From a bacterium (GTDB taxonomy: Bacteria > Patescibacteriota > Microgenomatia > UBA8517), in the NCBI GenBank assembly GCA_021790215.1, contig JAJYIG010000001.1:194-64193 (forward strand): a DNA stretch of 64,000 nucleotides, written 5' to 3'. Below, in pieces: positions 11,093-27,513 of this stretch. Position 1 is the stretch's first letter. Every line of letters begins with the position of its first letter. The notes beneath the pieces are model-generated. The model searched no databases, had not been told where the DNA came from, and saw only the letters and a list, made by a program, of their open reading frames with translations. A program made the position numbers and the translations under genes.

Positions 11093-11122
11093 AAAAACCT
11101 AGGGTACAATGCCCTGAGAGAC

Positions 11123-11152: not shown

Positions 11153-11157
11153 TCAAG

Positions 11158-12180: not shown

Positions 12181-13430
12181 AAATTTACAAGATTTGAAAT
12201 CCTCGTCGCTTCCTTCGCTGAAGTATTAATGTGAGTTGGAAGATTTAAGATTTGCTTTGAAATTTGTTCCGCCATAGGGCATTCTCCTTGATAACTTGTT
12301 TTAGCAAGCATTCTTCTTGGTGCAATGGGTGCATCATACCAAATATCTGAAACGTAAACCCTGTGACTTTTCAAATAAGTAACAAGGCCATTTCTGTTCT
12401 CTGTAAAAATCGGGTACCTTATGTTTGACGATTGATTGATATTCTTATTTAAATCATTCGATAACAAACTCTTATCAATAATCTCCATATATATCCTAGC
12501 AATTTTTCTTCGATGTCTGAGCTCAGAGTCAAATGAGGAAAACTTGTAATTAATCATAAAAGAATACCAATGAGGCAACCTGTGATATAAAACCAAATCC
12601 CTACCACCGATAGGTTGTGAAAGTACCTTTATTTTCTTCAGCAGAAAGTGTAAACCCCTTCCTAATCCAATTCGATAAAGACACCGAACCTTATACGTTA
12701 GGATTGGGTACAGTCGGTCTTTAAACCTTCTGATACTAGAAACATCAAAATACTGTATTTCTTTAAGACCCTTGTTAAACTTCTTGTTTCGTACAATCAG
12801 TGCGCCACCTGAAACGCCATCTATTATCTTATCCTGGCTGAACGAAAGCGTTGTAAAATCGCCAATTTTCCCAGCTTCCATACCATTTGAATAAAGGGTA
12901 CCTACACTATGAGCTAAATCTTCAATCAGAATAGTTTTATTTTTACTACAGTATTTTTTGATCTCCGCAATATCAACTGGATTACCAAGCGTATTTTGGA
13001 TAATGATAGCTTTCAGGTTTTTCACCTTTTCTAGTGCCTTGGACGAAAAATTCAAACTCTTGTCTATGTCTATATAGACAGGAATACACCCTGCTTCTAC
13101 CACGGCTTCATAAACCACAAAGCAAGTTAGCCCATTTACACCTATTCTGCTCCCTTTAGGGAATTGACACAGGTCAAGAGCTAACTTAATAGCTTCCCTG
13201 CCTTTATAGAGCAAAACTGGCTTTCCATCATATTTAGTATTCAAAAACTTTTTCAACTTCTCGCCTTCACCAAGAGTTCTCGAGGTAAAAAATGACTTAA
13301 CAACATATGCAAGGTTGTAATTTGAACCAAGCGAATTAAATACCATTTTTAATAATATTCCAGACTCTCTCGGGATGAGTATAAAAAGGGGTGTGTCTTG
13401 CTCCGTCAACAATAACCAATCTTGAACCAC
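12156..13430 (-). CDS. DegT/DnrJ/EryC1/StrS-family PLP-dependent aminotransferase-like protein
   Basis: Fold landmarks VNGLTCFVVYEAVVEAGCIPVYIDID, AIIIQNTLGNPVDIAEI, ILIEDLAHSVG and the putative Schiff-base Lys in LSFSQDKIIDGVSGGALI. Probable true start is the internal Met (MVFNSLG...) near 13346. Confidence 0.65.
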   Translation of the reverse strand: MVQDWLLLTEQDTPLFILIPRESGILLKMVFNSLGSNYNLAYVVKSFFTSRTLGEGEKLKKFLNTKYDGKPVLLYKGREAIKLALDLCQFPKGSRIGVNGLTCFVVYEAVVEAGCIPVYIDIDKSLNFSSKALEKVKNLKAIIIQNTLGNPVDIAEIKKYCSKNKTILIEDLAHSVGTLYSNGMEAGKIGDFTTLSFSQDKIIDGVSGGALIVRNKKFNKGLKEIQYFDVSSIRRFKDRLYPILTYKVRCLYRIGLGRGLHFLLKKIKVLSQPIGGRDLVLYHRLPHWYSFMINYKFSSFDSELRHRRKIARIYMEIIDKSLLSNDLNKNINQSSNIRYPIFTENRNGLVTYLKSHRVYVSDIWYDAPIAPRRMLAKTSYQGECPMAEQISKQILNLPTHINTSAKEATRISNLVNLWRSTNQK

Positions 13431-14055
13431 GAATCAGCTTTTCCATAATTCTTCCGTCAGAAAGTGGAGTTATTGTATCGTCCCTGCCCCAGATAATAAG
13501 CGTAGGTGTTTCTATTTCATCTAAATATGGTACTAAATCAGTACGTGTTAAATTTACCATCGATATCTTCATATTCGCAGACGCTTTCTGATAGTCACGC
13601 TCTCTTGCAAGGTAATATAAAAGGTTCTTCAGCGAATCCGACTTAGTAACCTTCTTACCGATGCTACTGAGAGTGCCAAAAACAAAACGTTTTATCTGAA
13701 GGAACAGCTCCTTATGATAAACACCGGCCGGGTCAATCAAAATCAGTTCTTGGAACTTTTCAGGGTGCTTCGCTGCAAAATAGGCTGCAATTCTACCACC
13801 ATTACTATGTCCCAAAAGTACAATCTTTCCCTTAATTTTATTTAACTCATCTCCAAGCCAGTCAGAATACCTTTCAATATCCCACACCTCATCCGAAGGC
13901 GCAGTTAAACCCGGAATCTTAAGAAAGATTAATTCACAACCGTCCTTTTTTAATAACTTTGCAAAGGTTTTCCACTTATCCAACGAATAGGTCCAACCAT
14001 GCAAAACATATATTTTTTTAATCACAGTCCCCATTTTTTCCTCCTTATCTCCCAA
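13336..14055 (-). CDS. Alpha/beta-fold hydrolase
   Basis: 239 aa. Nucleophile elbow LLGHSNGG, acid GRDDTITP and His GARHTPF give a catalytic triad pattern. Confidence 0.8.
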   Translation of the reverse strand: MGDKEEKMGTVIKKIYVLHGWTYSLDKWKTFAKLLKKDGCELIFLKIPGLTAPSDEVWDIERYSDWLGDELNKIKGKIVLLGHSNGGRIAAYFAAKHPEKFQELILIDPAGVYHKELFLQIKRFVFGTLSSIGKKVTKSDSLKNLLYYLARERDYQKASANMKISMVNLTRTDLVPYLDEIETPTLIIWGRDDTITPLSDGRIMEKLIRGSRLVIVDGARHTPFYTHPERVWNIIKNGI

Positions 14056-15278
14056 ATTTTTTCTCTTCTAGAAAGCATTTCAATATTCTTCTTATTTTTA
14101 AGTAGATGTTCAATTACCCCTTCAAGAAATCTTGCTCCCTTAAAAAGGATAATCTCTCCGCCTCTTAGGTTGCTTTTAAGATATTCCAAAACCTCTTTCG
14201 GACCGAGGAACGCCACCGTACTATCCGGTAAAAGCGGTTTGGTGTATTGAGTAACCCTGGGCCCCATTAAAATTATCCTATCAAACTTAAAATTTAAGAT
14301 CAGTTTTGCAAGATTCTCATGTTCCTCCTTCTCTTCTTTTCCTTGTTCAAGCATGTCTCCCAAGACTACCCACTTCTTCCTGGCTTTTATCTTGCCAAAC
14401 ATGCCAACAACAGCAGACATTGAATCCATATTTGCATTGTAAGTACTATCTACTATGGTAGTACCTTTAATTCCTTCAAAAAGTGAGTTTCGCCCCGGGG
14501 GCAAAATAAATTTTCCAAACGTTACATCAAACTCAATACCTAAGTAATTTGTAATTTGCCTTGCCATAAGTATCGAGGTAGATATCTCACCTGGCATTAA
14601 ATATCTAAAACTCACAACAAAATCATCAAATTTAAATTCCGTTTTTCCCAAACTAATTGAGTAATTTTTCAAACTATGTTTAGAGGAAACAGAAACAACA
14701 TTTGCCATTGTCCTTCCAAGCTCGCTGGCCTCATACAAATCGTCATCATTAATTATGACGAGGTTTCGGGTGCGTTCAATAAAATAACCAAATTCATATG
14801 CAATTGCGTTTTCAATTCTTGAAAATTTGTTCTTTCCTACCAGCCTATCAAAGTTCATACTGTGAGTTCTTGATACGTTGGTCCAAGCAGTTACCTCAGG
14901 TTTTAGAAGAGAACTAATGAAATTTCCTTCATAGGGTCTGTCGCAGTCCGCTTCAACAATATATATCTTTTCTCTCGGAACTGGTTTGAAAAGACTAAAG
15001 ATAGGAAGAAAAACTATCTTGGGCCATTCAATAAATGTGAGGTCCTTTCTATGAATTCCCAAAATATCAAAGGGGATTCCGAACGAACTATTGGCCTCGT
15101 GTGTGTATTTTGCCTTATCTCCAATCTGGGACTCCACCAAATGAAGTAGTGTGGTCTTTCCACTCGATCCTGTAATGACAATTATTCTCGGATTCCAAAA
15201 TTTAAGTCTGAGAGAAGCAAAAAAACGAAAATAAAAGGCAAGTGGAAAGTAAAAAAGCCTTTTAATTCTTATGTACAT
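14022..15278 (-). CDS. murF: Mur ligase, MurF-like (UDP-MurNAc-tripeptide:D-Ala-D-Ala ligase) lacking the usual N-terminal domain
   Basis: P-loop IVITGSSGKTT at residue about 33, IVDSTYNANMDSMSAVVG, and the C-terminal domain GDMLEQG (MurF GDMLELG). Confidence 0.65.
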   Translation of the reverse strand: MYIRIKRLFYFPLAFYFRFFASLRLKFWNPRIIVITGSSGKTTLLHLVESQIGDKAKYTHEANSSFGIPFDILGIHRKDLTFIEWPKIVFLPIFSLFKPVPREKIYIVEADCDRPYEGNFISSLLKPEVTAWTNVSRTHSMNFDRLVGKNKFSRIENAIAYEFGYFIERTRNLVIINDDDLYEASELGRTMANVVSVSSKHSLKNYSISLGKTEFKFDDFVVSFRYLMPGEISTSILMARQITNYLGIEFDVTFGKFILPPGRNSLFEGIKGTTIVDSTYNANMDSMSAVVGMFGKIKARKKWVVLGDMLEQGKEEKEEHENLAKLILNFKFDRIILMGPRVTQYTKPLLPDSTVAFLGPKEVLEYLKSNLRGGEIILFKGARFLEGVIEHLLKNKKNIEMLSRREKIWEIRRKKWGL

Positions 15279-15285
15279 ACACTAA

Positions 15286-16059
15286 TTATAAATCGACCTT
15301 GGTTATTTTGTCTTGAAGCTTTTGCCCCAAGAAGATTTCAGCCATCCTAGTAAAACGTTCGGTAAAATCTGTAACAAAGTAAGTGCTTTTGCCTACCAAA
15401 TTTTGGGAGTTTAACATCGAGTTTACTTTTAAATATTCGTAAACTTGTTTAGCCGCGGCTTTACCAGGATCAATTAACTTCACTCGATAATCAACCTCAC
15501 TCTCAATAATATTTTGGATAATCGGGTAGTGGGTACATCCCATTATCAGGGTATCTATTTTCTTTTTTTTAAAAGGATCTAAATATTTTTTAGCAATTAG
15601 TTTAAGTGCAGGTGTGTCAATTTCATCCTCCTCAATAAAGGGAACAAATAGAGGACAGCTTTGGGAATAAGAAACTTTATATGCGCCACTCTCGATTGTT
15701 CCCCTGGTACCGATTACTCCAATTTTTCCGGTTTTTGAAATCTTCCTTGCTTCGTCAATAGCCGGAGTAATTACGTCAAAGATCGGAACTCCCAATTTCT
15801 TTTTTAGAGCATTACCAGCAAGAGCCGAGGCGGTATTGCAGGCAATAACAATGCACTTAACTTTTTTATCCAAAAGAAAATTTGCATCTTCAAATGCAAA
15901 TTTTGTTACTGTTTCTTTACTTCTTGTTCCATAAGGAACTCCGGCAGTGTCTCCCAAATAAATAAAATCCTCATGCGGCATAAGTTTTATTAACTGCTTC
16001 AAAACTGTTAAACCACCAAGACCTGAGTCAAAAACTCCAATAGGATTTTCTTTAGTCAT
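15286..16059 (-). CDS. murI: Glutamate racemase
   Basis: VFDSGLGGLTV, GDTAGVPYG, IACNTAS and MGCTHYP motifs. Confidence 0.92.
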   Translation of the reverse strand: MTKENPIGVFDSGLGGLTVLKQLIKLMPHEDFIYLGDTAGVPYGTRSKETVTKFAFEDANFLLDKKVKCIVIACNTASALAGNALKKKLGVPIFDVITPAIDEARKISKTGKIGVIGTRGTIESGAYKVSYSQSCPLFVPFIEEDEIDTPALKLIAKKYLDPFKKKKIDTLIMGCTHYPIIQNIIESEVDYRVKLIDPGKAAAKQVYEYLKVNSMLNSQNLVGKSTYFVTDFTERFTRMAEIFLGQKLQDKITKVDL

Positions 16060-17362
16060 TCTGAAGAGATTCTACAGCCTTTTTGAATTGATTTCCCCTA
16101 TCCTTGTAATTTCGAAACATGTCAAAGGAGGCAGAGGCCGGCGATAAGATAACCACTCCTCCTTTTGGTGTAACTTCATACGCCTTCTTAACTATCTTAT
16201 CCATCGACGAATACCCCAAATCAAACATTTCACCTTTAAAGACATGGTCTTTAAAGGTATCTAAAATCTTTACCCTAGTGTCACCAACCAAAATGATGTT
16301 TATGATATTTTTTTTCTTCACTATCTCACGCGCCAGGTCAGCATAATCCAATCCTTTATCACTTCCTCCCAAAATCAATGTCTCCGGCTCGGAAAAAGAA
16401 TTTATTGCAGCAATTGTAGGTTGAGGTCCCGTTGCAAAAGAATCATTATAAAAAGTCACGCCACCCACCGTACTAACAAGTTCCAAACGATGTTCCAAAC
16501 CTTTAAAGTTTTTTACCGTCTCAAGAATTTTATCATCACCAACTTCTAAAATCCTGCCGACAGAAACCGCCGCAGCAATATTTTCTAAATTATGTTCTCC
16601 CCTTAAAAGCAGCTTTTCTTTGAATTTACTATCTAAAAATTCTTTCGAAAAAAATATTACTTTCCCTTTTGTAAATTCTGCGAAGCTTCTTGAAGTTTCA
16701 TATTCCTCGTTTATAAGCGAATAATCAGAAGGTTTTTGATGACTGACGATATTTCTTTTTGCCTCAACATACTCTTCCCGATTCTTGTGCCAATCAAGGT
16801 GATCAACAGTAATATTAAGAACCACAGCAATGTGTGGACTAACATTCATATCTATAAGTTGGAAAGAAGACATTTCCATTATTACGAGACTATCAGAAGA
16901 CAGCTCCGGCAAAAGCTCCAAATAAGGCTTACCTATATTCCCAGCAAGATAGACATTCTTTCCTGCTGCTTTCAAAATCTCATAAACTAAAGTCGATGTT
17001 GTCCCTTTACCTTTAGTACCGGTCACGCCAATAATTTTGCCCGGACATTCATCAAAAAATATTTTTATGGGGCTTGTAATTATTACACCTGATTCCTCCG
17101 CAGAAATTATTTCAGGGATATATCTGTAAACTCCGGGTGAACGGACAATCAGGTCAAAATCATTGAGCCCTTCCTTTAGGTAATCTTGTCCGAGCTTCCA
17201 TGAAACGTCGTTCACGTTGAGCTTCTCAATACTTTCATTTCGGTCAAAAACGGTGATCTTTGCACCTCGTTTTCTCAAAAAATTCAAGGCATCTTTCCCT
17301 TCCAAGCCAAAACCCAAAATCGCAACATTTTTATTTCTATATTCCATATTGTTTGTATTCAT
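16052..17362 (-). CDS. murD: MurD, UDP-MurNAc-L-Ala:D-Glu ligase
   Basis: N-terminal Rossmann VAILGFGLEGKDALNFL, then the Mur ligase P-loop IIGVTGTKGKGTTSTL. Confidence 0.9.
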   Translation of the reverse strand: MNTNNMEYRNKNVAILGFGLEGKDALNFLRKRGAKITVFDRNESIEKLNVNDVSWKLGQDYLKEGLNDFDLIVRSPGVYRYIPEIISAEESGVIITSPIKIFFDECPGKIIGVTGTKGKGTTSTLVYEILKAAGKNVYLAGNIGKPYLELLPELSSDSLVIMEMSSFQLIDMNVSPHIAVVLNITVDHLDWHKNREEYVEAKRNIVSHQKPSDYSLINEEYETSRSFAEFTKGKVIFFSKEFLDSKFKEKLLLRGEHNLENIAAAVSVGRILEVGDDKILETVKNFKGLEHRLELVSTVGGVTFYNDSFATGPQPTIAAINSFSEPETLILGGSDKGLDYADLAREIVKKKNIINIILVGDTRVKILDTFKDHVFKGEMFDLGYSSMDKIVKKAYEVTPKGGVVILSPASASFDMFRNYKDRGNQFKKAVESLQND

Positions 17363-17388
17363 GTATTACTACATGAATACATTGAAAA

Positions 17389-19653
17389 TTAAAAGTTTAT
17401 TAACTGGACTTCACGCTCCAGCCTTACACCAAATTTTCTAAAAACATCGGCAATTATATTTTCTGAAAGATCGTAAATATCTGAGGCACTAGATTTACCA
17501 TCAGGATTTATTAAAATAAGAGAGTTTCTGGATGAAACGGCAGCAGTCTTATAACTTTTACCCTTCCAACCGGCTTGTTCTATCAACCACGCTGCAGAAA
17601 CTTTAAAGGATTTACCAAAAGGAAAAATTTTTATTTCCGGATATTCTTTCTTCAATCTAGTTTCTGCATCCTGGGAGACAATCGGGTTTTTGAAAAAAGA
17701 TCCGGCATTGCCAATCTTTTTCGGATCCTCCAACTTTTCTGACCTAGCTTTTAAAACTGCGTTCCTTACCTGAAGTAAAGTAGAATTTTCAGAAAGATAG
17801 TTCTTAAGAGTTTCATAACCAATAAATGGTTTTCCACCTTTATTGAGTTTTAAAGTTACTTCTGTTATTAAAAATTTTTGCCAATGAGACTTTTTCTTAA
17901 AAATACTTTCTCTATAATCAAATTTACAATCTTCTTTATCGAAAGTGACAAATTTTTCTATATCAATGTTGTAAGCTTTAAGGCTCACAAAAACATCCTT
18001 CAGTTCCTGCCCATACGCTCCGATATTTTGTATGGGGGCAGCTCCTACTGTGCCGGGAATACCGGACATACACTCGATTCCCTGCAAATTATTCCGAACA
18101 GAATAGTCGACCAAATCGTCCCACTTCATTCCGGCACCTGCCGTAACCAAAGCTTCGTTCCCGTTAAAATTTACGTTAACGCTTTTACCCGAGAACTTAA
18201 TAACAATCCCATCAAAATCTTTGTCGCTAGGGAGGATGTCACTTCCACCTCCAATAATAAAAAATGGTTGATCATTCTTTTTAATTTCCTTCACCATTGC
18301 AGGTATCTCCACCTCTGAGTCAATCTCAACATATCGATTAATTTTTCCGCCAACCCTAAAGGTTGTAAGATCGGAAAATTTGACAGGAAGTAAATTGGCA
18401 ATTTCCCTCGCCCATAGGTAGCTTTTTCCGGCACCCATGACCAAGACAATATCACCTTCTCTTAAATCACGCAGCAATATATCTTTAATTTCTTCAAACG
18501 AATCAAATCCTTTCGCATCCTTATGTCCTGTCTCCTTTGCAACAATTTCCGGGGTAATTCCGAACGTCTCCTTATCGCGTGCCTTGAAAATCGGCCCGAT
18601 TAAAACTTTATCAGCATCCATAAAAGAATTTTTATATAAAGAAAGTAGGGCCTTGGTTCTGACAAAACCGTGCGGTTCATCGATAGCCCAAATCTTTGAT
18701 TTTGGGTAAACCTCGCGAAGCGCCGAGATTGTTGCCGCGATTGCTGTGGGGTGATGGGCATAATCATCATAAACTTTTACACTGCTTCTATCCGAAATAA
18801 GCTCAAGTCTCCTACCAATACCTTTGAAATTTTCAAGAGAGTCCCTAATGGTTTCATTTTTAATTCCCAGAAGTTCTGCAAGTTTCAAAACCCCCAAAGC
18901 ATTTGCAATATTGTGTTTACCCGGAATCTTCAGAGTAAAACCAAGGCTCTCTTTAGATGGAAAATATTTAATAATTTTGATATCGGCAGTATCAAGAGAT
19001 ACCAAAAGTTTTTGTATTCCTTCTGACTCCCCGTTAACGATCAGGGTTTTTTCTCCAACCAGGTTCCCGACAAATTTAGAAAAACTTTTAATTACCTCCT
19101 CCTCAGAAGCAAAATAATCGGGATGGTCAAACTCGATGTTATTTAGAACAATAATTTCCGGGTGATAATTCAGAAAATTATCGTTAAATTCATCTGCTTC
19201 AATGACAAAATACTCCCCCTTTCCATACCTGGAATTCCCGTTCCACTCAGGGACAGTCGCTCCAAGAACTACCGTGGGGTCCAGTCCGGCATCAACGAGA
19301 AGACGACCGGTCATTGCTGTTGTTGTAGATTTGCCATGAGTTCCTGCTACGCAAATTACCTTTTTATCCTTTGCCAGATACTTTCCTGCAAATTCCTCCC
19401 AAGTTACAACCACTTTTCTTTTCTCACCTTCGATAAGCTCCGGGCTTTTATTTTTCTGGAAATATACAGCTGGCGTGACAACCAATAAATCAATACCTTC
19501 CAAGTGTTTTGGATTGTGGCCCTGGATTATGTCACCGGAATATGCAGTACTTTTCTCCAAGTCACACCCCGTAATTTCATATCCCATGTTGGCAGCAAGC
19601 TTGGCAACTCCTGCCATTCCGCTTCCTCCAATTCCCATCATGTGAATTCTCAT
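17389..19653 (-). CDS. murC/murB: Bifunctional MurC-MurB fusion (UDP-MurNAc:L-Ala ligase fused to UDP-GlcNAc-enolpyruvate reductase)
   Basis: 754 aa. Residues 1-~440 are MurC (HMMGIGGSGMAGVA, VCVAGTHGKSTTTAM). Residues ~445-754 are MurB (TTFRVGG, FIIGGGSDIL, IPGTVGAAPIQNIGAYGQE; FAD-binding/PCMH fold). The domain boundary is near nt 18320. A 4-nt ATGA overlap with murE gives translational coupling. Confidence 0.85.
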   Translation of the reverse strand: MRIHMMGIGGSGMAGVAKLAANMGYEITGCDLEKSTAYSGDIIQGHNPKHLEGIDLLVVTPAVYFQKNKSPELIEGEKRKVVVTWEEFAGKYLAKDKKVICVAGTHGKSTTTAMTGRLLVDAGLDPTVVLGATVPEWNGNSRYGKGEYFVIEADEFNDNFLNYHPEIIVLNNIEFDHPDYFASEEEVIKSFSKFVGNLVGEKTLIVNGESEGIQKLLVSLDTADIKIIKYFPSKESLGFTLKIPGKHNIANALGVLKLAELLGIKNETIRDSLENFKGIGRRLELISDRSSVKVYDDYAHHPTAIAATISALREVYPKSKIWAIDEPHGFVRTKALLSLYKNSFMDADKVLIGPIFKARDKETFGITPEIVAKETGHKDAKGFDSFEEIKDILLRDLREGDIVLVMGAGKSYLWAREIANLLPVKFSDLTTFRVGGKINRYVEIDSEVEIPAMVKEIKKNDQPFFIIGGGSDILPSDKDFDGIVIKFSGKSVNVNFNGNEALVTAGAGMKWDDLVDYSVRNNLQGIECMSGIPGTVGAAPIQNIGAYGQELKDVFVSLKAYNIDIEKFVTFDKEDCKFDYRESIFKKKSHWQKFLITEVTLKLNKGGKPFIGYETLKNYLSENSTLLQVRNAVLKARSEKLEDPKKIGNAGSFFKNPIVSQDAETRLKKEYPEIKIFPFGKSFKVSAAWLIEQAGWKGKSYKTAAVSSRNSLILINPDGKSSASDIYDLSENIIADVFRKFGVRLEREVQLINF

Positions 19654-21647
19654 TTTAGTTTTTCCTCCATCTTTCTCTCAGCCTCTGCAAGCTGTTCAGG
19701 GGTATTGATTCCCTGCCACTCAATTGAATTAGGAAGTGTATAGGCAACAGTCCTTTCTCCCTGATCAATCGCCATTTTGATAAGCTCGACTATGTAATAT
19801 TCTCCGGAAACAGGGCTTTTTTCAACTTTTGGCAGATTTTTCTCCAGCCACTTTTTATCAAATACATAAAGTCCATCATTTATTTCCTTAATCTTTCGCT
19901 CTTTATCCGTCGCATCTTTTTCTTCAATAATACCTTTCAGATTTCCTCTTCCATCACGTACGATTCTTCCAAGTCCGTGGGGGTCATCCTTAATTAGAGT
20001 GACAAAACTTAAGATAGCTTTTTTCTCCTTATGGTTTTCCAAAACTTTATTTATTGTCTCTGGAGAATAAAACGCAGTATCGTCTCCATATAAAACCATT
20101 ACGTATTTTGTTTCATCCGAAACACGCTGAAGTCCGGAGGAAGCAGCGTCTGCGGTTCCTCCTTTGGGATTACCCTGAACTGCAATCTTAACCGCGCCAT
20201 CTATTTGCCTTATAACCAGATTTTTCTTAAATGAAACCACAACAATAATTTCTCCAACACCGGCATTTCTTAAATGCTGAAGTGAATAAGTGATCATGGG
20301 TCTTCCGCAAATTTTGTGAAGGACTTTGGGAAGGCCTGAGTTCATCCTGGTCCCTTTTCCGGCCGCAAGGAGGATCGCAGAAACATCTTTTTTCCTTTCA
20401 ATGTAGTTTTTTACGGACTCAAAATCGCTCCAAGGATGTTCATATCCATCGTAGGCCATACTTTTCTCATGTCCTTTTCCGGCGAAAACTACAGTGTCTC
20501 CTTTTTTAGCAATTGAGAGAGCATAGGGAATTGCCTCCCCTCTTTCGGGAATCGCGACATAATTTTTGGCGTCCTTCTTCATCGATCGCAAAATATCAAA
20601 AATATTTTCACTTCTCGGATCCTCAGCCGTAAAGACACTCATATCGGCCAATTCTCCGGATATTTTGCCCATCTTTCGGCGTTTTTTATGATCCCTTTCT
20701 CCTGCGCAACCAAAAACTGAGATTAACTTTCCGGACGTAACTGATCTCAAATATTTTAGAAGTGCCTCAAGTGATTCTGGGGTATGTGCAAAATCAATAA
20801 AAACCTTAATGCCCAAATTATTTTTAATTTCCATAAGTCGTCCTTCGGGAAGCTTAAAGGTTTTTAAGGTCATAAGAGCTTGGCTCCTCTCAAAACCAAG
20901 TTTTTCAACTGCCATTAAAGCTGCCTCCACATCCAAATTGTTAAAATCCCCCGGAAGAATTTTCAAGTTTGTAAACTCCGGAGCAATAACCTTCAACCTG
21001 GCCGAATTCAAAAATGACATTTTAACCTTCTTATATTCCTTAAAGGTTTTGTGATAATCCAAATGCTCAGGCGCAATATTGGTCAAAACTCCTACTTCAA
21101 ATCTAACCCCGGCAATTCTTTTTTGATCAATTCCATGCGAACTAACCTCGACCACAGCATATTCACATCCCGCCTTTACCATTTCCGCTAAAAATTTATG
21201 AAGAGAGAGTGTGTCAGGACTTGTTACATGGAAACCTGTATCAATCTCTTTATCCCCTATCTTGGCAATTATTGAAGAAACCAGGCCAGTTTTCTTACCT
21301 AACGAGGTTAAAATATGATAGATCAGGTGAGATGTGGTAGTTTTACCTTTCGTGCCTGTTACTCCTATTACTGTAAGATGCTCGGAAGGGTTGCCATAAA
21401 ATTCTGAAGCGATCTCCCCAAGGGCCTCCCTTGAATCCGGCACTTTTATGTATATGGCATCTTTCAGCTTCAAATTTCGCTCTCCAACTACTGCAATCGC
21501 TCCCCTTTTTACAGCCTCAGAAATAAAATCGTGGCCGTCAGAATTCATGCCTTTTATAGCTACAAAGATAAAGCCTTTTCTTACATTTCTTGAGTCATCG
21601 GCAACCCCCTTTGCGCCTTTGACCAAATCCTCCAAATCTTTTATCAT
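19650..21647 (-). CDS. murE: MurE (UDP-MurNAc-dipeptide:diamino-acid ligase) fused to a GlmU-type sugar-1-phosphate uridylyltransferase domain
   Basis: 665 aa. Residues 1-~415 are MurE (ADDSRNVRKGFIFVAIKG, VIGVTGTKGKTTTSHL, GKGHE). Residues ~416-665 are ILLAAGKGTRMNSGLPKVLH, LYGDD and EEKDATDKERKIKEINDG, which closely match the GlmU N-terminal uridyltransferase signatures (LAAGKGTRM, YGDVPL, KDATxEQRxIxEIN). No LbH acetyltransferase domain follows. Confidence 0.8.
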   Translation of the reverse strand: MIKDLEDLVKGAKGVADDSRNVRKGFIFVAIKGMNSDGHDFISEAVKRGAIAVVGERNLKLKDAIYIKVPDSREALGEIASEFYGNPSEHLTVIGVTGTKGKTTTSHLIYHILTSLGKKTGLVSSIIAKIGDKEIDTGFHVTSPDTLSLHKFLAEMVKAGCEYAVVEVSSHGIDQKRIAGVRFEVGVLTNIAPEHLDYHKTFKEYKKVKMSFLNSARLKVIAPEFTNLKILPGDFNNLDVEAALMAVEKLGFERSQALMTLKTFKLPEGRLMEIKNNLGIKVFIDFAHTPESLEALLKYLRSVTSGKLISVFGCAGERDHKKRRKMGKISGELADMSVFTAEDPRSENIFDILRSMKKDAKNYVAIPERGEAIPYALSIAKKGDTVVFAGKGHEKSMAYDGYEHPWSDFESVKNYIERKKDVSAILLAAGKGTRMNSGLPKVLHKICGRPMITYSLQHLRNAGVGEIIVVVSFKKNLVIRQIDGAVKIAVQGNPKGGTADAASSGLQRVSDETKYVMVLYGDDTAFYSPETINKVLENHKEKKAILSFVTLIKDDPHGLGRIVRDGRGNLKGIIEEKDATDKERKIKEINDGLYVFDKKWLEKNLPKVEKSPVSGEYYIVELIKMAIDQGERTVAYTLPNSIEWQGINTPEQLAEAERKMEEKLK

Positions 21648-21675
21648 TCGTGAATATTATATATCAACTGCTTCG

Positions 21676-22704
21676 CTAGGCAGAACCCGATTCCAAGATG
21701 GCCTTTGCAAGCCTTTCGGAATTATGGCGTAAAAGATGATCCTTCTTTAGGTATTCCCCAAGCTTAGCCTTAACAACCTTCACATTTGGTGCAAGCTTTC
21801 TGCAGAGTTCTTCGTCAAGCTCAACCACTTCCTGACCTTCCTTTTTATAAAGATTCACTATTTCTTTATCCAATCTTGCATTACTTACTACCAAAAAGTT
21901 TAAGCGTTTTTTATTGCCTAAATAAAAAAGTAATGCCTTAAGGTAATCCGATGCTTTGAAAGAATCAGTTTCACCTGGCTTAGTAGTCAAATTTAAGACG
22001 AAGTAAACTTTTGCACGGGAACGGCAGATGGCCTCCGCAACTCCGTCAATCAAAAGGTGCGGCAAAACACTTGTAAAAAGATCTCCTGGAGCAAAGACAA
22101 TTTTATCAGCCTGGCTTATGGCAGTGAGCACTTTGGGATTATTGTCGGCGTGAGTTCCAAAATAAATCCTCACAATTCTATCTTTTGGATCAAAATCCTT
22201 TCTTTCACTTCTTTTATCGATATTTGTTTCACCATCCACCTCAACTCCACGCTCAGTATGGCAACCAAGAGTTAAATCGGTAAGACTTGCGGGAAGGACC
22301 TGGCCGCGAATACGGAATAAGGCTCTTTCGGCGTCGGTTCCTCTATCCTGTCCATGAAATATACGATCAAGCCTGACACCAATTAAATTACCAAGGGAAT
22401 GTCCTTTTAGTGGGCCAACCACTTCTTTTAGTCTATCGTCAAAAAGTCTCTGGGCAACTCTTTGCTGTTCATCGTCTTCCATTAAAGCCAAAAGACAGGC
22501 TCTAATGTCCCCCGGAGGCAAAACTCCGAGTTCAGTACGTAAAATACCGGAAGAACCTCCACTGTCCCATGTCCCAACTACTGCAGTTATCAAAGATGGG
22601 TCGTTAAACTTTTTTAAACCGGTGAGAAGTTGAAAATGGCCGGTCTTACCGCCAAAAGTCACTATCTTTTGTCTGAATTTACTTTTGGCCGTTTGAGCTA
22701 TCAT
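21676..22704 (-). CDS. YvcK/UPF0052 (CofD-like, gluconeogenesis-factor/GlmR family) protein
   Basis: IVTFGGKTGHFQLLTGLK ... VVGTWDSGGSSGILR ... LPPGDIRACLLAL matches the YvcK/CofD family core (GGGTG, DDGGSSG, PPGDxRN). Confidence 0.75.
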   Translation of the reverse strand: MIAQTAKSKFRQKIVTFGGKTGHFQLLTGLKKFNDPSLITAVVGTWDSGGSSGILRTELGVLPPGDIRACLLALMEDDEQQRVAQRLFDDRLKEVVGPLKGHSLGNLIGVRLDRIFHGQDRGTDAERALFRIRGQVLPASLTDLTLGCHTERGVEVDGETNIDKRSERKDFDPKDRIVRIYFGTHADNNPKVLTAISQADKIVFAPGDLFTSVLPHLLIDGVAEAICRSRAKVYFVLNLTTKPGETDSFKASDYLKALLFYLGNKKRLNFLVVSNARLDKEIVNLYKKEGQEVVELDEELCRKLAPNVKVVKAKLGEYLKKDHLLRHNSERLAKAILESGSA

Positions 22705-23950
22705 ACTTTTCGATCTCGGCCCCTAATTCACGAAGCCTTTCATCGATCTTTTCATATCCACGATTGACTACTTCCACATTCTCAATTTCACTTTTTCCCT
22801 CTGCAACAAGAGCCGCCAATATAACTGATATGCCCGCTCTTATATCCTTACAAAAAAGTCTATCACTCATAAGATGCGTCGGGCCGCTAACTATAACCCT
22901 ATGGGGATCAGCAATAAAAATGTTAGCCCCCATCGAAATAAGATCGTCAACAAAAAACATTCTCCATTCATACATCCAGTCGTGACAAAGTACGGTTCCT
23001 TGAGTTTGAGTAGCAAGAACTATAAAGGGACTCATCAAGTCTGTGGGAAAACCCGGCCAGGGACGTGTCTGAAACTTTCTCCTCTTTGCAACAAGTTTTG
23101 AAGGCATTACGGTAACAGAATGATCCGTAGCCTTAAACTCGACCCCCATATAAGAAAGGTAATTCATAACCATCGGATATTTATCAATTTCAAACCCTTC
23201 GATTTCAACCTCACCTCCGGTGATAGCTGCCGCAATTGCAAAGGTTCCCCCCTCAATGTGGTCCGGGCAGATCCTATGCTCAGCTCCATTCATAGGCCCT
23301 CCTTCTATATTTAAAACATTCGAACCTATTCCGGAAATCTTTGACCCCATTTTATTCAAAAACATTGCCAAGTCAGTTACATGCGGTTCTGTTGCAGCAT
23401 CCTCTATTTTCATTCCTCCCGGAAGACTTGATGCCATCATAAGTCCCATTTCTGTGGCAGTTACCGAAGGTTCATCCAAAAAAATATCTGATGATTTCCG
23501 ATGTTTCCAGTCTAAAAAGAACCGTCCGTCTTTCCTGGCAATTTCCACCCCCATTTTTTGCATCATTGCAAAATGAGTATCAAGGAGCCTTTCTCCGATT
23601 TGATCACCTCCCGGAGGTGTGACAATGGTTTTTCCGAACCTGGCAAGAAGCGGCGCGGCTAGAACTACAGAAGCTCTAAATCTGGAAGAAAGATCAGGAT
23701 CAAGATCATAAGACGATAAACCGGATGGATCAATCGTCACCGTATGATCCTCGCGTTTCACTTTAACCCCAAGCCTTTCAATAAGCTCCAGCATAACAGA
23801 AATATCAGAAATGTCGGGAACGTTTGTGAAAGTAGATGGAGAATCAGCCAAAAGAGCAGCTGGAATAAGCTTCAAGGCCGAATTTTTGTTGCCGAAAAGC
23901 CTGATTTTTCCGTTTAAAGGCTTTCCTCCTGTCACAATAAACTTGGACAT
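22679..23950 (-). CDS. murA: MurA, UDP-GlcNAc 1-carboxyvinyltransferase
   Basis: 423 aa. N-terminal KFIVTGGKPLNGKIRLFGNKNSALKLIPAALLA, the EPSP-synthase-like fold, and its cluster position. Confidence 0.88.
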   Translation of the reverse strand: MSKFIVTGGKPLNGKIRLFGNKNSALKLIPAALLADSPSTFTNVPDISDISVMLELIERLGVKVKREDHTVTIDPSGLSSYDLDPDLSSRFRASVVLAAPLLARFGKTIVTPPGGDQIGERLLDTHFAMMQKMGVEIARKDGRFFLDWKHRKSSDIFLDEPSVTATEMGLMMASSLPGGMKIEDAATEPHVTDLAMFLNKMGSKISGIGSNVLNIEGGPMNGAEHRICPDHIEGGTFAIAAAITGGEVEIEGFEIDKYPMVMNYLSYMGVEFKATDHSVTVMPSKLVAKRRKFQTRPWPGFPTDLMSPFIVLATQTQGTVLCHDWMYEWRMFFVDDLISMGANIFIADPHRVIVSGPTHLMSDRLFCKDIRAGISVILAALVAEGKSEIENVEVVNRGYEKIDERLRELGAEIEKYDSSNGQK

Positions 23951-23997
23951 GTAACTAGTATTTTACTACAACACCTACAAAATCAATAATCAAGGCT

Positions 23998-25713
23998 TTA
24001 ACTTGATGGCTGAACTCCCAGATAAGGAAATAAGTCTCTAGCGATTGAAAACCACAACGGCGCCGCCGTCTCGGATGCCCAAGGAGACGCCTGAGGAGAA
24101 TCAAGAGTGACAAGCATTACAAACTTTGGATGGTCAGCGGGCGCAAACCCTATAAACGAATGGTTTGTGTTAACTGGATCGTAATGCCCGGCAACAGGAA
24201 TTTGTGCCGTACCGGTTTTCCCGGCTACATTATCAAAACCAGAAATCTTGCACCACTTGGCCTCACCTAAATTTGCTGCCTGAACCATCATTTGAGCAGC
24301 CTCCTGAGCAGCTTTTTCGCTAATAATTCTCACGGGTGGGTCAGTATTTACAGGTTGCTGCCATCCGTCTCCCCGGATTGAATCAACAACGCGCGGAGTC
24401 ACTAAATAGCCTCCATTTGCAATCACTGAAATTGCTCTCACCATTTCTATTCCTGTAACAGCTACCCCCTGTCCGAAACTCGCAGTATCAAGGTCGACAT
24501 TACTCCAACTCCCCTTCTTCCTTAATGGCGGTGCAGCCTCTCCCTGCAAATCTATACCCGTTGTTTTTCCAATCCCAAAACTATTAAGATAGTTATAAAG
24601 CTTATCTGCCCCCAGCTTTTGTCCGACAAAACTCATTCCAACATTATCAGAGTTTATAATAACTTCTGTCATTGTTGAGTTTGATCTGTATTTATTATCC
24701 CAAGTCCTTATCTGAAAGCCATCAACATTAATTGGACCGGAGCAGATATCGCACTCTGTGTCGGGAGTTACGAGTCCTGCATCAATGGCCGAAGCCATAA
24801 CAATTGGTTTAAATATCGATCCTGGTTCAAAAGAGTCCGATATCACGGTATTTTTAAACACCTCGTTGCTGTATTGAGAATAGTTGCTTGGGTCAAAACT
24901 TGGTAAACTCGCCATTGCCATAATTTTACCTGTATACGGATCCATTATTGTTACACTTCCACCCTTTGCCTGATATTTTTGAATTCCATTTGCAAGTTCC
25001 GTTTCAGCCAAAATTTGAATCCTTTTGTCGACATTTGTCAGAAGATCCACACCCGGAACTGCTGACACCTCCATTGTTCCACCCGAAAGAATAGGCGCAC
25101 CTAAAGCATTCTTCTCCCCACCCATAAATCCAGGTTTACCGCTTAACGGAAGGTCGTAATATCCCTCAAGCCCAAAATATCCCACATCATGGCCACTTGA
25201 ATCTTTACCCACAAAACCCAGGATATGTGCAGCAGAAGACGCCTCAGGATAATACGAATCCTCCTCCGGATCAAAACCTATCCCCCGGATTCCCAAAGCA
25301 TCAATATTCCTTTTGGTAGGATCATCCATCTTACCACCCAAAGAAACCCAACTTAGATTACTTTTGGAAAGAATTCCCTGCAATTTATCGACCTCGTCCA
25401 TTAGCTCCACCTTATCGGTCGGGTCTTTAACAAAAAAGGGTGCCAGCCTGTTTGCAACGGCCTGGACGGAATCAGTCAACATCTTAGGATTTGCCCACGG
25501 AAGCCAGCCTTGAGTTCTTACAACCCAATATGTTCCGTCGGAGGCGAGAATATTTCCTCTTGGAGCGCTAGTTACTTTAGAAGAACTATATTGTGCCTGG
25601 GCATCTTGAGAGAGGACAGAACCTTTTATAATTTGCCAGTAAAAAAGTCTGACGATAACGGCAGCAAAAAGAATTAAAAAAAAGATAGAGAGTAATCGAA
25701 TTTTTACACCCAT
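23998..25713 (-). CDS. ftsI: Class B penicillin-binding protein (FtsI-type transpeptidase)
   Basis: N-terminal TM. SxxK (PGSIFKP), SxN (INSDNVG) and KTG (AGKTGTA) transpeptidase motifs. Sits at the dcw position of ftsI. Confidence 0.9.
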   Translation of the reverse strand: MGVKIRLLSIFFLILFAAVIVRLFYWQIIKGSVLSQDAQAQYSSSKVTSAPRGNILASDGTYWVVRTQGWLPWANPKMLTDSVQAVANRLAPFFVKDPTDKVELMDEVDKLQGILSKSNLSWVSLGGKMDDPTKRNIDALGIRGIGFDPEEDSYYPEASSAAHILGFVGKDSSGHDVGYFGLEGYYDLPLSGKPGFMGGEKNALGAPILSGGTMEVSAVPGVDLLTNVDKRIQILAETELANGIQKYQAKGGSVTIMDPYTGKIMAMASLPSFDPSNYSQYSNEVFKNTVISDSFEPGSIFKPIVMASAIDAGLVTPDTECDICSGPINVDGFQIRTWDNKYRSNSTMTEVIINSDNVGMSFVGQKLGADKLYNYLNSFGIGKTTGIDLQGEAAPPLRKKGSWSNVDLDTASFGQGVAVTGIEMVRAISVIANGGYLVTPRVVDSIRGDGWQQPVNTDPPVRIISEKAAQEAAQMMVQAANLGEAKWCKISGFDNVAGKTGTAQIPVAGHYDPVNTNHSFIGFAPADHPKFVMLVTLDSPQASPWASETAAPLWFSIARDLFPYLGVQPSS

Positions 25714-25722
25714 TTTTCCTTG

Positions 25723-26019
25723 CTATGGAAGTTTAGCAACAGCTTCGCCGGCTGAGGTATAAACCAAAGCCGTCGGCTTAACATATCCCATTGCCACACT
25801 TTCCTCCTGAAGTTGACTGACAGAAAGAGATTTAACCAAAGAATCCTGCAAGTACCCTTTCTGATCTAGAAGCTGTACTTCTTCTTTTTGTAAAGCCGCA
25901 AACTCAACTCCTGAAGTTGCTGTTTCAATTGTAACAAAAACCGATGAGACAACCATAACCGCTAAAGTTATCACTAAAATAACTCCTCTCGGACTTTTTA
26001 AATCAATTATTTTTTTCAT
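25723..26019 (-). CDS. FtsL-like small bitopic division protein
   Basis: 98 aa. Single TM (GVILVITLAVMVVSSVFVTI), then a short extracytoplasmic coiled segment. Lies between rsmH and ftsI as ftsL does in canonical dcw clusters. Confidence 0.5.
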   Translation of the reverse strand: MKKIIDLKSPRGVILVITLAVMVVSSVFVTIETATSGVEFAALQKEEVQLLDQKGYLQDSLVKSLSVSQLQEESVAMGYVKPTALVYTSAGEAVAKLP

Positions 26020-26032
26020 ATTTTGGATAATC

Positions 26033-27052
26033 TTATTTCTTCTCTAAAATTCTCATCTTTGCGCTTCTCGCCCTGGGATTTCCTTCAAGTTCATCCGCGC
26101 TTGCTATATCAAATCCTGAGACACCTTTTCCTGTCATAAAATCTTTAACAATTTTGTCCTCCCCGGAATGAAAACTGATAACAACCAGTCTTCCTCCTAC
26201 CTCAAGCAAGTTATAAGCTTTTGGTAAAACCTCCTTTAAATTTTCAAGCTCGCTATTGACAGCTATCCTTAAAGCCAAAAATGGTAATGTTGCTTCGTTC
26301 AACCCGTGTTTGCCGGTTCTTAATCCGTCACAAATCTCAAGCATGTCATTGACCTTCAATATAGGACTTCTTTTCCTAAACTCCGTAACCTTTTTAGAAA
26401 TCCACTTGGCCGGACCAGGTTCAATAGTTACTTCAAAAAGATTCCTAAGTTGATCCTCTCTAAGAATATTTAAAAGGTCAGATGCTTTTACCCCCTGGGC
26501 CTCAGGATTAATCCGCATGTCCAATGGCGCTTCCCGGTTGGCAAAAGAAAACCCTCTCTCCAAATCTTTGAGGTGAAGATTACTCACCCCAAGGTCAAGT
26601 AAAATCCCCGAAACTTTCTCAAAACCGTTTTCCTTTGCAATCCTGTCTATGTCGGTAAAATTCCCATTAACCAGACTGTATTTATCTCTATCTAGGATCT
26701 CTTTCCCGATTCTCTTACGAGACATCTCAACCATTTTAGGATCGAGATCAATTCCCAAAACCTCTCCCCCAAGTTTCAAAATCTCCAGGGTGTGTCCCCC
26801 TGTTCCGAGAGTAGCGTCAATATATTTGCAAGCTTTTTTAAGGTGCTTTGACCTGCTACAGATGTGCAAGGCACTTATTACCTGATCAACCATTACCGAT
26901 TCATGGTATTTACCAGGGCCTTGGCTGGCCAAGCTTTGCTTATTTTCCATCTCTTTTTGCCAATCTTTCGATATAACTCGCTGCCTCTTTTGCAACCTCA
27001 GCTTCCTTCTTTTCCCAAAGCTCTTTGTTCCAAATCTCAATCCTATCCCCAA
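26033..27052 (-). CDS. rsmH: 16S rRNA m4C1402 methyltransferase RsmH (MraW)
   Basis: DATLGTGGHTLEIL SAM motif. Probable true start is Met35 (MENKQSL...) at 26950, leaving a 10-nt overlap with mraZ. Confidence 0.88.
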   Translation of the reverse strand: MGIGLRFGTKSFGKRRKLRLQKRQRVISKDWQKEMENKQSLASQGPGKYHESVMVDQVISALHICSRSKHLKKACKYIDATLGTGGHTLEILKLGGEVLGIDLDPKMVEMSRKRIGKEILDRDKYSLVNGNFTDIDRIAKENGFEKVSGILLDLGVSNLHLKDLERGFSFANREAPLDMRINPEAQGVKASDLLNILREDQLRNLFEVTIEPGPAKWISKKVTEFRKRSPILKVNDMLEICDGLRTGKHGLNEATLPFLALRIAVNSELENLKEVLPKAYNLLEVGGRLVVISFHSGEDKIVKDFMTGKGVSGFDIASADELEGNPRARSAKMRILEKK

Positions 27053-27377
27053 CCCCTAAGAAGTAAACCTGCTCACCAAGACCGGCGTATACCACTAATC
27101 TGTCAGGTAAAACTATTCTCCCCTGGTCATCAATATCAACCTCGTAGGCTGAAGCAAAAATAAAATGTTCAGTCTCTCTAATCGGTTCGATGATCATCCT
27201 CTCTCCTCCTGTCAATCTATCTAAAAGTGCACTCCAAGAATCATTACCCACCAAAACCAAACAGTTCTCGTACCATTTGGCTAAAATTGCCGATTGTCCT
27301 ATCTTTTGGCGGAATACTGAAGGGATCGATGTTCGCTTTCCCGAAGTTACACTGACAAGATATGTACCTACAAACAT
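26940..27377 (-). CDS. mraZ: Transcriptional regulator MraZ
   Basis: 145 aa, first gene of the dcw cluster, two MraZ/SpoVT-AbrB-like half domains (MFVGTYLVSVTSGKRTSIPSVFRQKIG ... GRIVLPDRL). Confidence 0.8.
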   Translation of the reverse strand: MFVGTYLVSVTSGKRTSIPSVFRQKIGQSAILAKWYENCLVLVGNDSWSALLDRLTGGERMIIEPIRETEHFIFASAYEVDIDDQGRIVLPDRLVVYAGLGEQVYFLGVGDRIEIWNKELWEKKEAEVAKEAASYIERLAKRDGK

Positions 27378-27398
27378 TTCTTTTCATCTAGGCAGATG

Positions 27399-27434
27399 GG
27401 TGAGAAAATACCATTTCTCACCATTATCAACCAT
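27399..27434 (-). promoter_or_regulatory. Candidate MraZ operator: three direct repeats (WWATGGT on the coding strand) at exact 10-bp spacing, plus a 9-bp inverted repeat GGTGAGAAA-N6-TTTCTCACC
   Basis: ACCAT on the plus strand at 27410, 27420 and 27430. The inverted repeat spans 27399-27422. The site is 22-57 nt upstream of the mraZ ATG. Confidence 0.45.
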
Positions 27435-27461
27435 AATGATATTATTTTCACAAAATGTCAA
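27433..27461 (-). promoter_or_regulatory. Candidate dcw promoter (-35 TTGACA, 17-nt spacer, -10 CATTAT on the minus strand)
   Basis: Reverse complement of 27456-27461 is a perfect TTGACA; the best -10 at 17-nt spacing is CATTAT (27433-27438). Confidence 0.35.
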
Positions 27462-27513
27462 CCCCTATATTTCACGAAAAAGCGGATTCGGACTTATCTT
27501 TAAAAAATGAGAC

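Follow-up and report, generated by a model that had tools for sequence, protein, structure and literature searches.

The stretch of DNA studied here comprises 64,000 nucleotides (positions 194 to 64,193 of the forward strand of contig JAJYIG010000001.1, assembly GCA_021790215.1) from a bacterium of the Patescibacteriota (Microgenomatia, UBA8517) and is referred to below as the window. On its minus strand, at 19650..21647, it carries a gene in which murE is fused in frame to the part of glmU that encodes the N-terminal uridylyltransferase (murE-glmU(N)). We consider it likely that the product is a bifunctional cell-wall precursor enzyme from a member of the Patescibacteria of the Microgenomates/Woesebacteria type, composed of MurE and the pyrophosphorylase half of GlmU, that it was born by the merger of overlapping neighbouring genes, and that the join serves the co-production of the two enzymes and not the channelling of a substrate between them.

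Architecture and conservation of the fusion protein

The fusion gene was delimited from the list of open reading frames (ORFs), from Pfam and NCBIfam domains, from its homologues and from an AlphaFold2 (AF2) model. The ORF starts with ATG, encodes 665 amino acids and contains no internal stop codon. Along its product, Pfam places the domains Mur_ligase (PF01225, residues 14-84), Mur_ligase_M (PF08245, 96-218), Mur_ligase_C (PF02875, 270-392) and NTP_transferase (424-662), and the motifs LAAGKGTRM, LYGDD and KDATDKERKIKEIN were each found in the translation. The initial annotation of the window had described a single continuous ORF of 665 residues that combines MurE with a GlmU-type N-terminal uridylyltransferase, and its coordinates, quoted motifs and domains were all verified.

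The C-terminal half is a GlmU-type uridylyltransferase module (residues 417-665 and the stop codon, 19650..20399, minus strand), recognised by GlmU profiles, relatives in the PDB and a fold match. Its residues 423-664 match eleven GlmU models of NCBIfam with E values of 1e-62 to 1e-64, whereas the next nucleotidyltransferase families are much weaker (archaeal GlmU 1e-28, AglF 1e-20, RmlA 1e-14). When the PDB was searched with the sequence of the C-terminal domain, 17 GlmU sequences (E 1e-27 to 1e-38) ranked before any other family, including those of Streptococcus pneumoniae (1G95/1HM0, E 1.5e-38) and Escherichia coli (1HV9, E 4e-33), and RmlA-type enzymes came next at ~1e-8. Using Foldseek, the C-terminal part of the model was superimposed on 1G97, a GlmU structure with bound UDP-N-acetylglucosamine (UDP-GlcNAc), with a root mean square deviation of 1.5 Å over 239 columns. 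The alignment against other nucleotidyltransferase families that had been proposed as a check of the initial annotation was thus clearly in favour of GlmU, the other subfamilies being far weaker.

The GlmU profiles align only over positions 2-240 of ~450, in agreement with the earlier statement that the left-handed beta-helix (LbH) acetyltransferase half is absent. No Hexapep match to such a domain was detected in the fusion protein, which ends at residue 665. Scored alone against the GlmU equivalog TIGR01173, the domain reaches 214.9 bits and stays below the cutoff of 366.85. The window domain would work like the uridylyltransferase half of GlmU, yet is not a member of the bifunctional GlmU equivalog. 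With the bifunctional enzymes of E. coli (1HV9/1FWY) and S. pneumoniae (1G95/1G97) it shares the pyrophosphorylase fold, the signature and the metal, uridine and GlcNAc residues, but it differs from them in lacking the LbH acetyltransferase/trimerisation domain and in being joined to the C-terminus of MurE.

The L-x2-G-x-G-T-x-M-x4-P-K signature of the GlmU pyrophosphorylase is present in the window sequence as LLAAGKGTRMNSGLPK. According to the alignment, R434, K441, Q491, D523, E575, N590 and N648 correspond to R15, K22, Q72, D102, E154, N169 and N227 of pneumococcal GlmU, and the equivalents of the uridine-, metal- and GlcNAc-binding set of the E. coli enzyme (Q76, T82, D105, G140, E154, N169, N227) are all kept. 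From published GlmU structures we take the mapped residues to be ligands of phosphate, uracil, metal and GlcNAc. R434, K441, Q491, T498, D522/D523, G560, E575, N590 and N648 do not vary among 46 aligned family members, which share 61-82% identity with the window protein. The isolated N-terminal domain of a truncated E. coli GlmU is active as a uridyltransferase. Residue 169 of GlmU has been described as diagnostic of a working uridyltransferase site, the impaired GlmU of Staphylococcus aureus having Ser169 (preprint 10.64898/2026.06.23.733835), and the equivalent in the window protein is an invariant Asn (N590). As judged from these residues, the GlmU half would convert UTP and N-acetylglucosamine 1-phosphate (GlcNAc-1-P) to UDP-GlcNAc and pyrophosphate.

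The MurE module (residues 1-416, 20400..21647, minus strand) was assigned by TIGR01085, by the structures 4BUB and 1E8C and by conserved catalytic residues. It scores 442.5 bits against TIGR01085 (cutoff 257.3) and 426 bits against the MurE equivalog NF001126 (cutoff 373). Its closest solved structure is MurE of Thermotoga maritima (4BUB, E 5e-81), and in Foldseek the MurE part of the AF2 model matches 1E8C with a template modelling (TM) score of 0.77 on the target. The P-loop G98-T-K-G-K-T-T-T105, E167, H195-L-D-Y-H199, K209 and E342-D343-R345 are invariant in the 46 family members, and T. maritima MurE has the P-loop (GxxGKT), the His motif and the central-domain lysine at the aligned positions. 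In keeping with the established Mur ligase literature, we take them to be the P-loop of the ATP site, the metal/His motif and the lysine on which known Mur ligases are carbamylated. The predicted reaction is the ATP-dependent addition of the third residue onto UDP-MurNAc-L-Ala-D-Glu.

The initial annotation had called this MurE complete. Three Mur-ligase domains are indeed present and score above the curated cutoffs, but the central domain lacks ~47 residues compared with T. maritima MurE. The deletion site at residues 213-232 (20952..21011, minus strand) is apparent from the profile and 4BUB matches, both of which fall into two stretches. These residues stand opposite residues 223-289 of 4BUB, and the Pfam Mur_ligase_M match reaches no further than profile position 115 of 200. 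In protein order the gap follows the conserved lysine and precedes the GxFNxxN motif, which is kept, and the AF2 model is confident at this site, with a predicted local distance difference test (pLDDT) of 91-96 per 10-residue block. The short central domain is conserved in the family of the window protein, and the unfused MurEs of related loci of the Candidate Phyla Radiation (CPR) are likewise short (373-428 amino acids); the divergent fusions P0125 and P0178 retain a full-length central domain. At the position of the meso-diaminopimelate motif DNPR the window MurE has E342-D343-P-R345 (EDPR), which is nearest to the DDPR of the T. maritima enzyme. The T. maritima MurE (4BUB), which adds L-/D-lysine, has a D-D-P-R-type motif where the E. 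coli enzyme has DNPR; the window enzyme, with its E-D-P-R, differs from it in the ~47 missing central residues and in the additional C-terminal module. Overall, both halves look catalytically intact and appear to be under purifying selection.

The two halves meet in a junction without a linker (residues 408-427, 20367..20426, minus strand). DSSP analysis of the AF2 model, which was built from the 46-sequence alignment and has a pLDDT of 91.2 and a predicted TM score (pTM) of 0.87, shows that the last MurE helix (408-416) is followed immediately, without a disordered stretch in between, by residues 419-427, which form the first beta-strand of the nucleotidyltransferase. At the window junction (...PWSDFESVKNYIERKK/DVSAILLAAGKGTRM) the MurE part ends in ...NYIERKK, whereas at the unfused locus L083 MurE ends in ...LKLRLKK and a stop codon, and GlmU(N) then begins with MMKKFAAVVLAAGKGTRL.

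The fusion is widespread. All of the best 120 matches in a collection of 5.8 billion proteins carry Mur-ligase and NTP_transferase domains, at 60-100% identity and lengths of 634-693 amino acids, and they derive from NCBI, JGI, ENA and Logan assemblies with contigs of up to 1.08 Mb. At least six further clusters at 50% identity likewise consist of MurE and a short GlmU. MurE-GlmU(N) is thus the standard form in a large family of Patescibacteria. That the fusion be widespread and annotated was one part of what the initial annotation had named as speaking against its reading, and this partly applies: the fusion is widespread, and in public databases it is annotated in generic terms. Where a name is given, the relatives are called 'Mur ligase family protein [Patescibacteria group bacterium]', 'NTP transferase domain-containing protein [Candidatus Woesebacteria bacterium]' or MurE. 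A few records (L001, CAZWNZ010000002.1; P0115; P0126) are labelled 'uncultured Gammaproteobacteria', 'Alphaproteobacteria' or 'Candidatus Nanoarchaeia archaeon' despite dcw (division and cell wall) clusters of Patescibacteria type, and these labels probably reflect mis-binned or mis-classified metagenome-assembled genomes.

Fusion states of the short glmU and origin of the chimera

A HMMER search with the 250-residue GlmU-like domain alone returned 904 clusters (50% identity) below an E value of 1e-30, of which the best 150 representatives were classed by their architecture. Standalone proteins of ~250 amino acids form the largest class (96), followed by proteins of 'canonical size' with a C-terminal extension of 150-299 residues (23) and by those with a C-terminal extension of 60-149 residues (11). 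An N-terminal extension of at least 300 residues is present in 6 representatives and is MurE in every case, a C-terminal extension of at least 300 residues is present in 4, and the remainder are fragments (8) or other forms (2). In P0135 and P0137 the short GlmU is followed by MurC, so that the order is reversed and the ligase is a different one, and in P0167 it is joined to an APH-family kinase. LbH-bearing GlmUs were confirmed solely among representatives at ~37-38% identity (P0213, P0193). It is therefore a large family of standalone short GlmUs of ~250 residues, and not the MurE fusion, that is characterised by the loss of the LbH domain.

In the gene contexts of the examined loci, the short glmU occupies the slot between murE and murC of the dcw operon in any fusion state. 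It is unfused in L087 (penicillin-binding protein (PBP) gene, GNAT gene, murE, glmU(N), murC, murB, murA; junctions TAATG and ATGA), in L083-L085 (murE and glmU(N) with an ATGATG overlap, then a Cu-oxidase_4 family gene, murC and murB) and in L004, where murE and glmU(N) likewise form an overlapping pair. Fused to murE it is found in the window, in L001 as a frame of 680 codons, and in L088 and L089 (PBP gene, murA, murE-glmU(N), then further on murC and murB). It is fused to murC in P0135/L081 and P0273/L082 (PBP gene, murE, glmU(N)-murC, murB), and the L081 junction still has the initiator Met of MurC (...GDK/MKKIHIMG). A fusion to a HAD domain in the same slot is present in L090 (Beckwithbacteria). 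Among the matches listed in a scan of a genome collection with a generic MurE P-loop pattern, the informative loci were L001, L004 and L011.

A neighbour-joining tree of the GlmU-like domain (100 bootstraps) recovers the window family as one clade with 96% support and pairs the MurC-fused P0137 with P0127, a true standalone from Curtissbacteria, with 100% support. Some 'standalone' representatives close to fusions in this tree are truncated gene calls (P0121, P0124, P0130).

Since the short glmU sits between murE and murC either unfused, fused to MurE or fused to MurC, the fusion reflects adjacency and co-expression. The chimera would have arisen when the stop codon between translationally coupled, overlapping murE and uridylyltransferase-only glmU genes was lost, and the partner, MurE or MurC, would have been set by gene position. 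Stop-codon loss between coupled neighbours is the simplest reading of the end-to-start junctions. The join then secures the 1:1 co-production, and possibly the co-assembly, of the entry enzyme and a mid-pathway enzyme.

UDP-GlcNAc is not a substrate of MurE, and MurA, MurB, MurC and MurD act between the GlmU and MurE reactions, which are thus four steps apart. Direct channelling from GlmU to MurE is implausible because of these intervening enzymes, and we regard the passage of a substrate between the two sites as unlikely. The proposal of the initial annotation that the fusion physically couples UDP-GlcNAc synthesis to stem-peptide elongation, if understood as a hand-over, can therefore not be upheld, given the four intervening enzymes and a short glmU that is elsewhere MurC-fused or free. 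As the same short glmU is MurC-fused or unfused in other lineages, the join is explained by operon adjacency and not by a partnership specific to MurE.

Other explanations of the fusion were considered. An artefact of assembly or sequencing, in which a lost stop codon or a frameshift made one long ORF out of two genes, can be practically dismissed. Unfused relatives do have overlapping stop and start codons, where one base error could imitate a fusion. However, the continuity of the ORF was confirmed by the absence of a stop codon within it and by the same fusion in all of the 120 nearest protein clusters, which stem from numerous independent projects and assemblers, as well as in L001, L088 and L089; moreover, the 90% cluster of the window protein includes a member of identical length from a separate ENA assembly. 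It is also improbable that the C-terminal module activates another sugar-1-phosphate, such as MurNAc-1-P in a MurU-like recycling, GlcN-1-P or Glc-1-P. Such an activity would suit a protein in which the missing LbH half leaves the canonical step from GlcN-1-P to GlcNAc-1-P absent, and P0167 carries an APH-type kinase, recalling salvage of the AmgK/MurU style, while other short GlmUs are joined to HAD phosphatase-like domains. Against this, GlmU models match at an E value of 1e-63 versus 1e-28 or weaker for each other nucleotidyltransferase family, the top 17 solved relatives are all GlmU, and none of the 47 PDB sequences with E ≤ 1e-5 is named MurU. The equivalents of the GlcNAc and metal residues T82, G140, E154, N169, N227 and D105 are invariant, the fold is that of UDP-GlcNAc-bound 1G97, and a salvage fed by a kinase would still yield GlcNAc-1-P and leave the chemistry of the domain unchanged. 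A MurU identity of the C-terminal domain was rejected on the similarity ranking, no MurU model being among the top 25 NCBIfam matches.

More weight, although still well short of an even chance, is given to the idea that the fusion was selected as a physical Mur 'metabolon', in which the GlmU module is held rigidly against MurE and serves either as its regulator, for instance as a sensor of UDP-GlcNAc or UTP, or as the nucleus of a complex with MurA, YvcK and MurC-MurB. The linker-less join and the pTM of 0.87, which suggests a confident relative placement of the domains, would fit this idea, as would the retention of the fusion throughout a family whose members share at least 60% identity and in additional 50% clusters, and the MurC-MurB chimera and YvcK/GlmR homologue that adjoin the fusion gene. 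A published MurE-MurF chimera, moreover, binds other Mur ligases, and the hydrophobic interface between its parts is fixed (PMC10214165). Yet other lineages join the short GlmU to MurC, with the order of the parts reversed, and in sister lineages it stands alone, one MurC-fused and standalone pair having 100% tree support, and the two reactions lie four steps apart.

A bifunctional enzyme born from adjacent genes and serving co-production remains our preferred explanation, against which several points have to be weighed. The predicted activities of both halves are drawn from the conservation of catalytic residues, and the gap of ~47 residues in the central domain together with EDPR in place of DNPR makes the substrate of MurE, and formally its activity, putative at most. 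The pTM of 0.87 and the lack of a linker suggest a fixed interface between the domains, which could reflect selection beyond co-expression, such as for allostery or scaffolding. The deep nodes of the tree have 7-46% support, so that the number of MurE-fusion events is not settled by it. Finally, the window holds no LbH GlcN-1-P acetyltransferase, GlmS or GlmM that would account for GlcNAc-1-P.

Supply of GlcNAc-1-P

Because the LbH domain is absent, the textbook acetylation of GlcN-1-P is missing. Domain and profile searches of the 64-kb window revealed no glmS, glmM or canonical glmU, consistent with the earlier remark that no separate glmU is visible there. The only other NTP_transferase, at 39136-40242, was examined as a standalone glmU and is ManC (TIGR01479, E 2e-83). 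The sole LbH protein of the window, a 198-residue hexapeptide protein encoded at 49411-50007, was considered as the lost C-terminal half of GlmU and rejected: it is WcaF/maltose-O-acetyltransferase-like, lies inside the polysaccharide cluster, and matches GlmU models over 49 residues with an E value of 7e-10.

The relatives of the window protein offer other partners. P0158 (Beckwithbacteria; L090 6329-7753), P0140, P0160 and P0175 have the length of a canonical GlmU (474-487 amino acids) and no hexapeptide repeats, with a HAD-superfamily domain in their place. This HAD part contains DxDNT...K...DD motifs and matches 2P11 (8e-28) and 2HOQ (7e-11) in a profile search of the PDB, with N-acylneuraminate-9-phosphatases among the weak matches. 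P0174 combines the short GlmU with a HAD and a GNAT domain, both of which are barely above the Pfam cutoffs. At L087, a gene for a 164-residue GNAT acetyltransferase (6199-6693) lies between the PBP gene and the murE/glmU(N) pair, directly upstream of murE, and might take the place of the acetyltransferase that this GlmU lacks. No homologues of these HAD, GNAT and APH partners were found in the window.

The MupP-AmgK-MurU salvage pathway consists of a HAD phosphatase, an APH kinase and a nucleotidyltransferase, and the eukaryotic UDP-GlcNAc pathway includes a GNAT step. By analogy, the HAD, HAD plus GNAT and APH fusion partners are candidate suppliers of GlcNAc-1-P, and they hint at a non-canonical or salvage route. 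The likeness to the AmgK/MurU/MupP salvage of Pseudomonas lies in the APH (P0167) and HAD (P0158 group) fusions of the relatives, which represent the same three enzyme classes; it is a likeness of logic and not of membership. The difference is that the nucleotidyltransferase is GlmU-like here and not MurU-like, and that the window is without the partner domains.

A more far-reaching possibility, which we put forward only tentatively, is that the wall UDP-GlcNAc of Patescibacteria bypasses GlmS-GlmM-GlmU. A uridylyltransferase-only GlmU, built into the dcw cluster and joined to MurE or MurC, would receive its GlcNAc-1-P from a GNAT acetyltransferase, a HAD phosphatase/mutase and/or an APH-type anomeric kinase, possibly with GlcNAc derived from a host, and would constitute, with the fused Mur enzymes and YvcK/GlmR, an assembled precursor factory. 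If this were true, what is seen in MurE-GlmU(N) would be just the tip of an alternative route to hexosamines that has so far gone undescribed in a very large radiation of bacteria.

At L090 (4222-6253, reverse strand), a HAD S6PP-like hydrolase and a 418-residue NTP_transferase with a GMPPB-like LbH are encoded by a divergently oriented gene pair that interrupts the Beckwithbacteria dcw cluster between yvcK and glmU(N)-HAD.

Known Mur chimeras and the dcw cluster of the window

A 2023 survey of natural Mur chimeras (Shirakawa et al., PMC10214165) lists MurE-MurF, MurC-Ddl, MurC-MurB, MurG-MurC, MurD-FtsW and MraY-MurG. Some of these published pairs are not consecutive in the pathway, and the chimeras are read as serving stability, stoichiometry or the assembly of complexes. 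The survey never mentions GlmU, and since it excluded sequences from unidentified species, CPR bacteria are outside its range. A study of dcw evolution also left CPR out. The fusion described here resembles the surveyed chimeras in that neighbouring dcw genes for two enzymes of the peptidoglycan pathway, in some cases a non-consecutive pair, have become one polypeptide. Its continuous ORF lies in one frame, its two parts are unfused and overlapping in L083, L087 and L004, and the same slot is occupied in L001, L088 and L089. It differs from them in its partner, which is half a GlmU, normally encoded outside the dcw cluster, and not a Mur, Ddl or Fts protein.

GlmUs with an N-terminal domain only occur in some RefSeq bacteria, for example Polystyrenella longa, and imply an unidentified acetyltransferase or an alternative route (preprint 10.64898/2026.06.23.733835). 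They resemble the domain studied here in being uridylyltransferase-only, but they were reported from NagU-containing taxa, with no CPR, dcw residence or Mur fusion. In 8 million searchable papers and preprints, which do not cover most subscription journals and so offer no proof, no description was found of a MurE-GlmU fusion, of a short glmU resident in the dcw cluster or of glmU in CPR. The initial annotation knew of no description of this architecture, and the searchable literature, most subscription journals being outside it, bears this out. The fusion is apparently undescribed, yet explicable by the ordinary fusion of operon neighbours.

Mur chimeras have served as evidence for a cytoplasmic complex of peptidoglycan-precursor enzymes and as handles for structural work, and the new pairing adds the entry step, the formation of UDP-GlcNAc, and comes from CPR. 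Taken alone, the chimera is only mildly surprising. More valuable is that it exposes a dcw-resident GlmU without LbH whose several fusion states extend over a huge radiation, and the free, MurE-fused and MurC-fused states of this GlmU represent a natural experiment on the fusion of overlapping operon genes. A GlmU without acetyltransferase that is a standard dcw gene in bacteria with reduced genomes sharpens the question of where GlcNAc-1-P comes from in organisms thought to depend on a host, and ties in with recent evidence that alternative routes to UDP-GlcNAc in bacteria 'are not rare'.

The dcw cluster of the window lies entirely on the minus strand and contains, in order, mraZ, rsmH, a PBP gene, murA, a YvcK/GlmR-family gene, the fusion gene, a MurC-MurB gene, murD, murI, a murF-like gene, genes for an alpha/beta hydrolase, a DegT-type aminotransferase and a FemAB protein, mraY, ftsW, murG, a weak FtsQ-like ORF, ftsA and ftsZ. 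By the ORF coordinates, the stop codon of the fusion gene overlaps the start of murC-murB in an ATGA (19650..19653, minus strand; minus-strand sequence AAAATGAGAATT). This downstream neighbour (17389..19653, minus strand) encodes a MurC-MurB chimera of 754 amino acids, identified by Pfam and NCBIfam, in which MurC (residues 2-418; TIGR01082, 349.6 bits) and MurB (426-753; NF000755, 336.6 bits) both score above the NCBIfam cutoffs. As murC and murB are separate genes in the relatives L001 and L003, this chimera is later and narrower than the MurE fusion. MurC-MurB chimeras are known from Verrucomicrobia (PMC10214165, PMC4803751).

The upstream neighbour (21676..22704, minus strand) encodes a CofD-like UDP-GlcNAc-binding protein of the YvcK/GlmR family (TIGR01826, 232.9 bits, cutoff 196). 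Its homologues are again encoded close to murE or the short glmU in L001, L003, L090 and L011, in the last of which the gene immediately precedes glmU(N). Listeria GlmR is reportedly an accessory uridyltransferase. Two genes upstream of the fusion lies murA (22679..23950, minus strand; Pfam EPSP_synthase, E 7e-67), which encodes the first consumer of UDP-GlcNAc.

The murF-like ligase gene (14022-15278, minus strand) is weak, with 129.5 bits against TIGR01143 (cutoff 288.6), a match to profile positions 118-409 only and no N-terminal Mur domain in Pfam, and may encode a divergent or truncated MurF. Between it and mraY lies a trio of genes (11158-14055, minus strand) for the alpha/beta hydrolase (13336-14055), the aminotransferase, which is of the DegT/LegC sugar type (12156-13430), and the FemAB-family peptidyltransferase (11158-12180); L002 has this trio as well. 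The trio and the EDPR of MurE hint at a peptidoglycan that is of the lysine type, contains a bridge or is otherwise modified. Two genes of the FtsW/RodA/SpoVE family were found, one in the dcw cluster (8898-10121, minus strand) and one beside ileS at the start of the window (164-1192, minus strand). The rsmH ORF (TTG start at 27052) overlaps mraZ by ~110 nucleotides (26940-27052, minus strand), and its Pfam match begins at residue 49; the true start of rsmH is probably further downstream. A scan of 10000-28500 for promoters and terminators gave counts equal to the shuffled expectation.

Scans of the 64-kb window yielded no tRNA genes and no Rfam matches. The region from 38478 to 63800 is devoted to surface polysaccharide and glycosylation and includes a Bac_transf priming transferase, ManC, ~10 glycosyltransferases of the GT1, GT2 and GT4 families, a Wzy-like polymerase, a Wzx-like flippase and the WcaF-like acetyltransferase. 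It also encodes an AsnB-like amidotransferase on the plus strand and four to five membrane proteins of the PMT_2/PMT family, which resemble dolichyl-phosphate-mannose protein mannosyltransferases. Nearly all large ORFs of the window are on the minus strand, and the GC skew is negative in every 2-kb bin, its cumulative curve declining steadily to -4.57, a pattern that a single replichore with a strong gene-strand bias would be expected to show.

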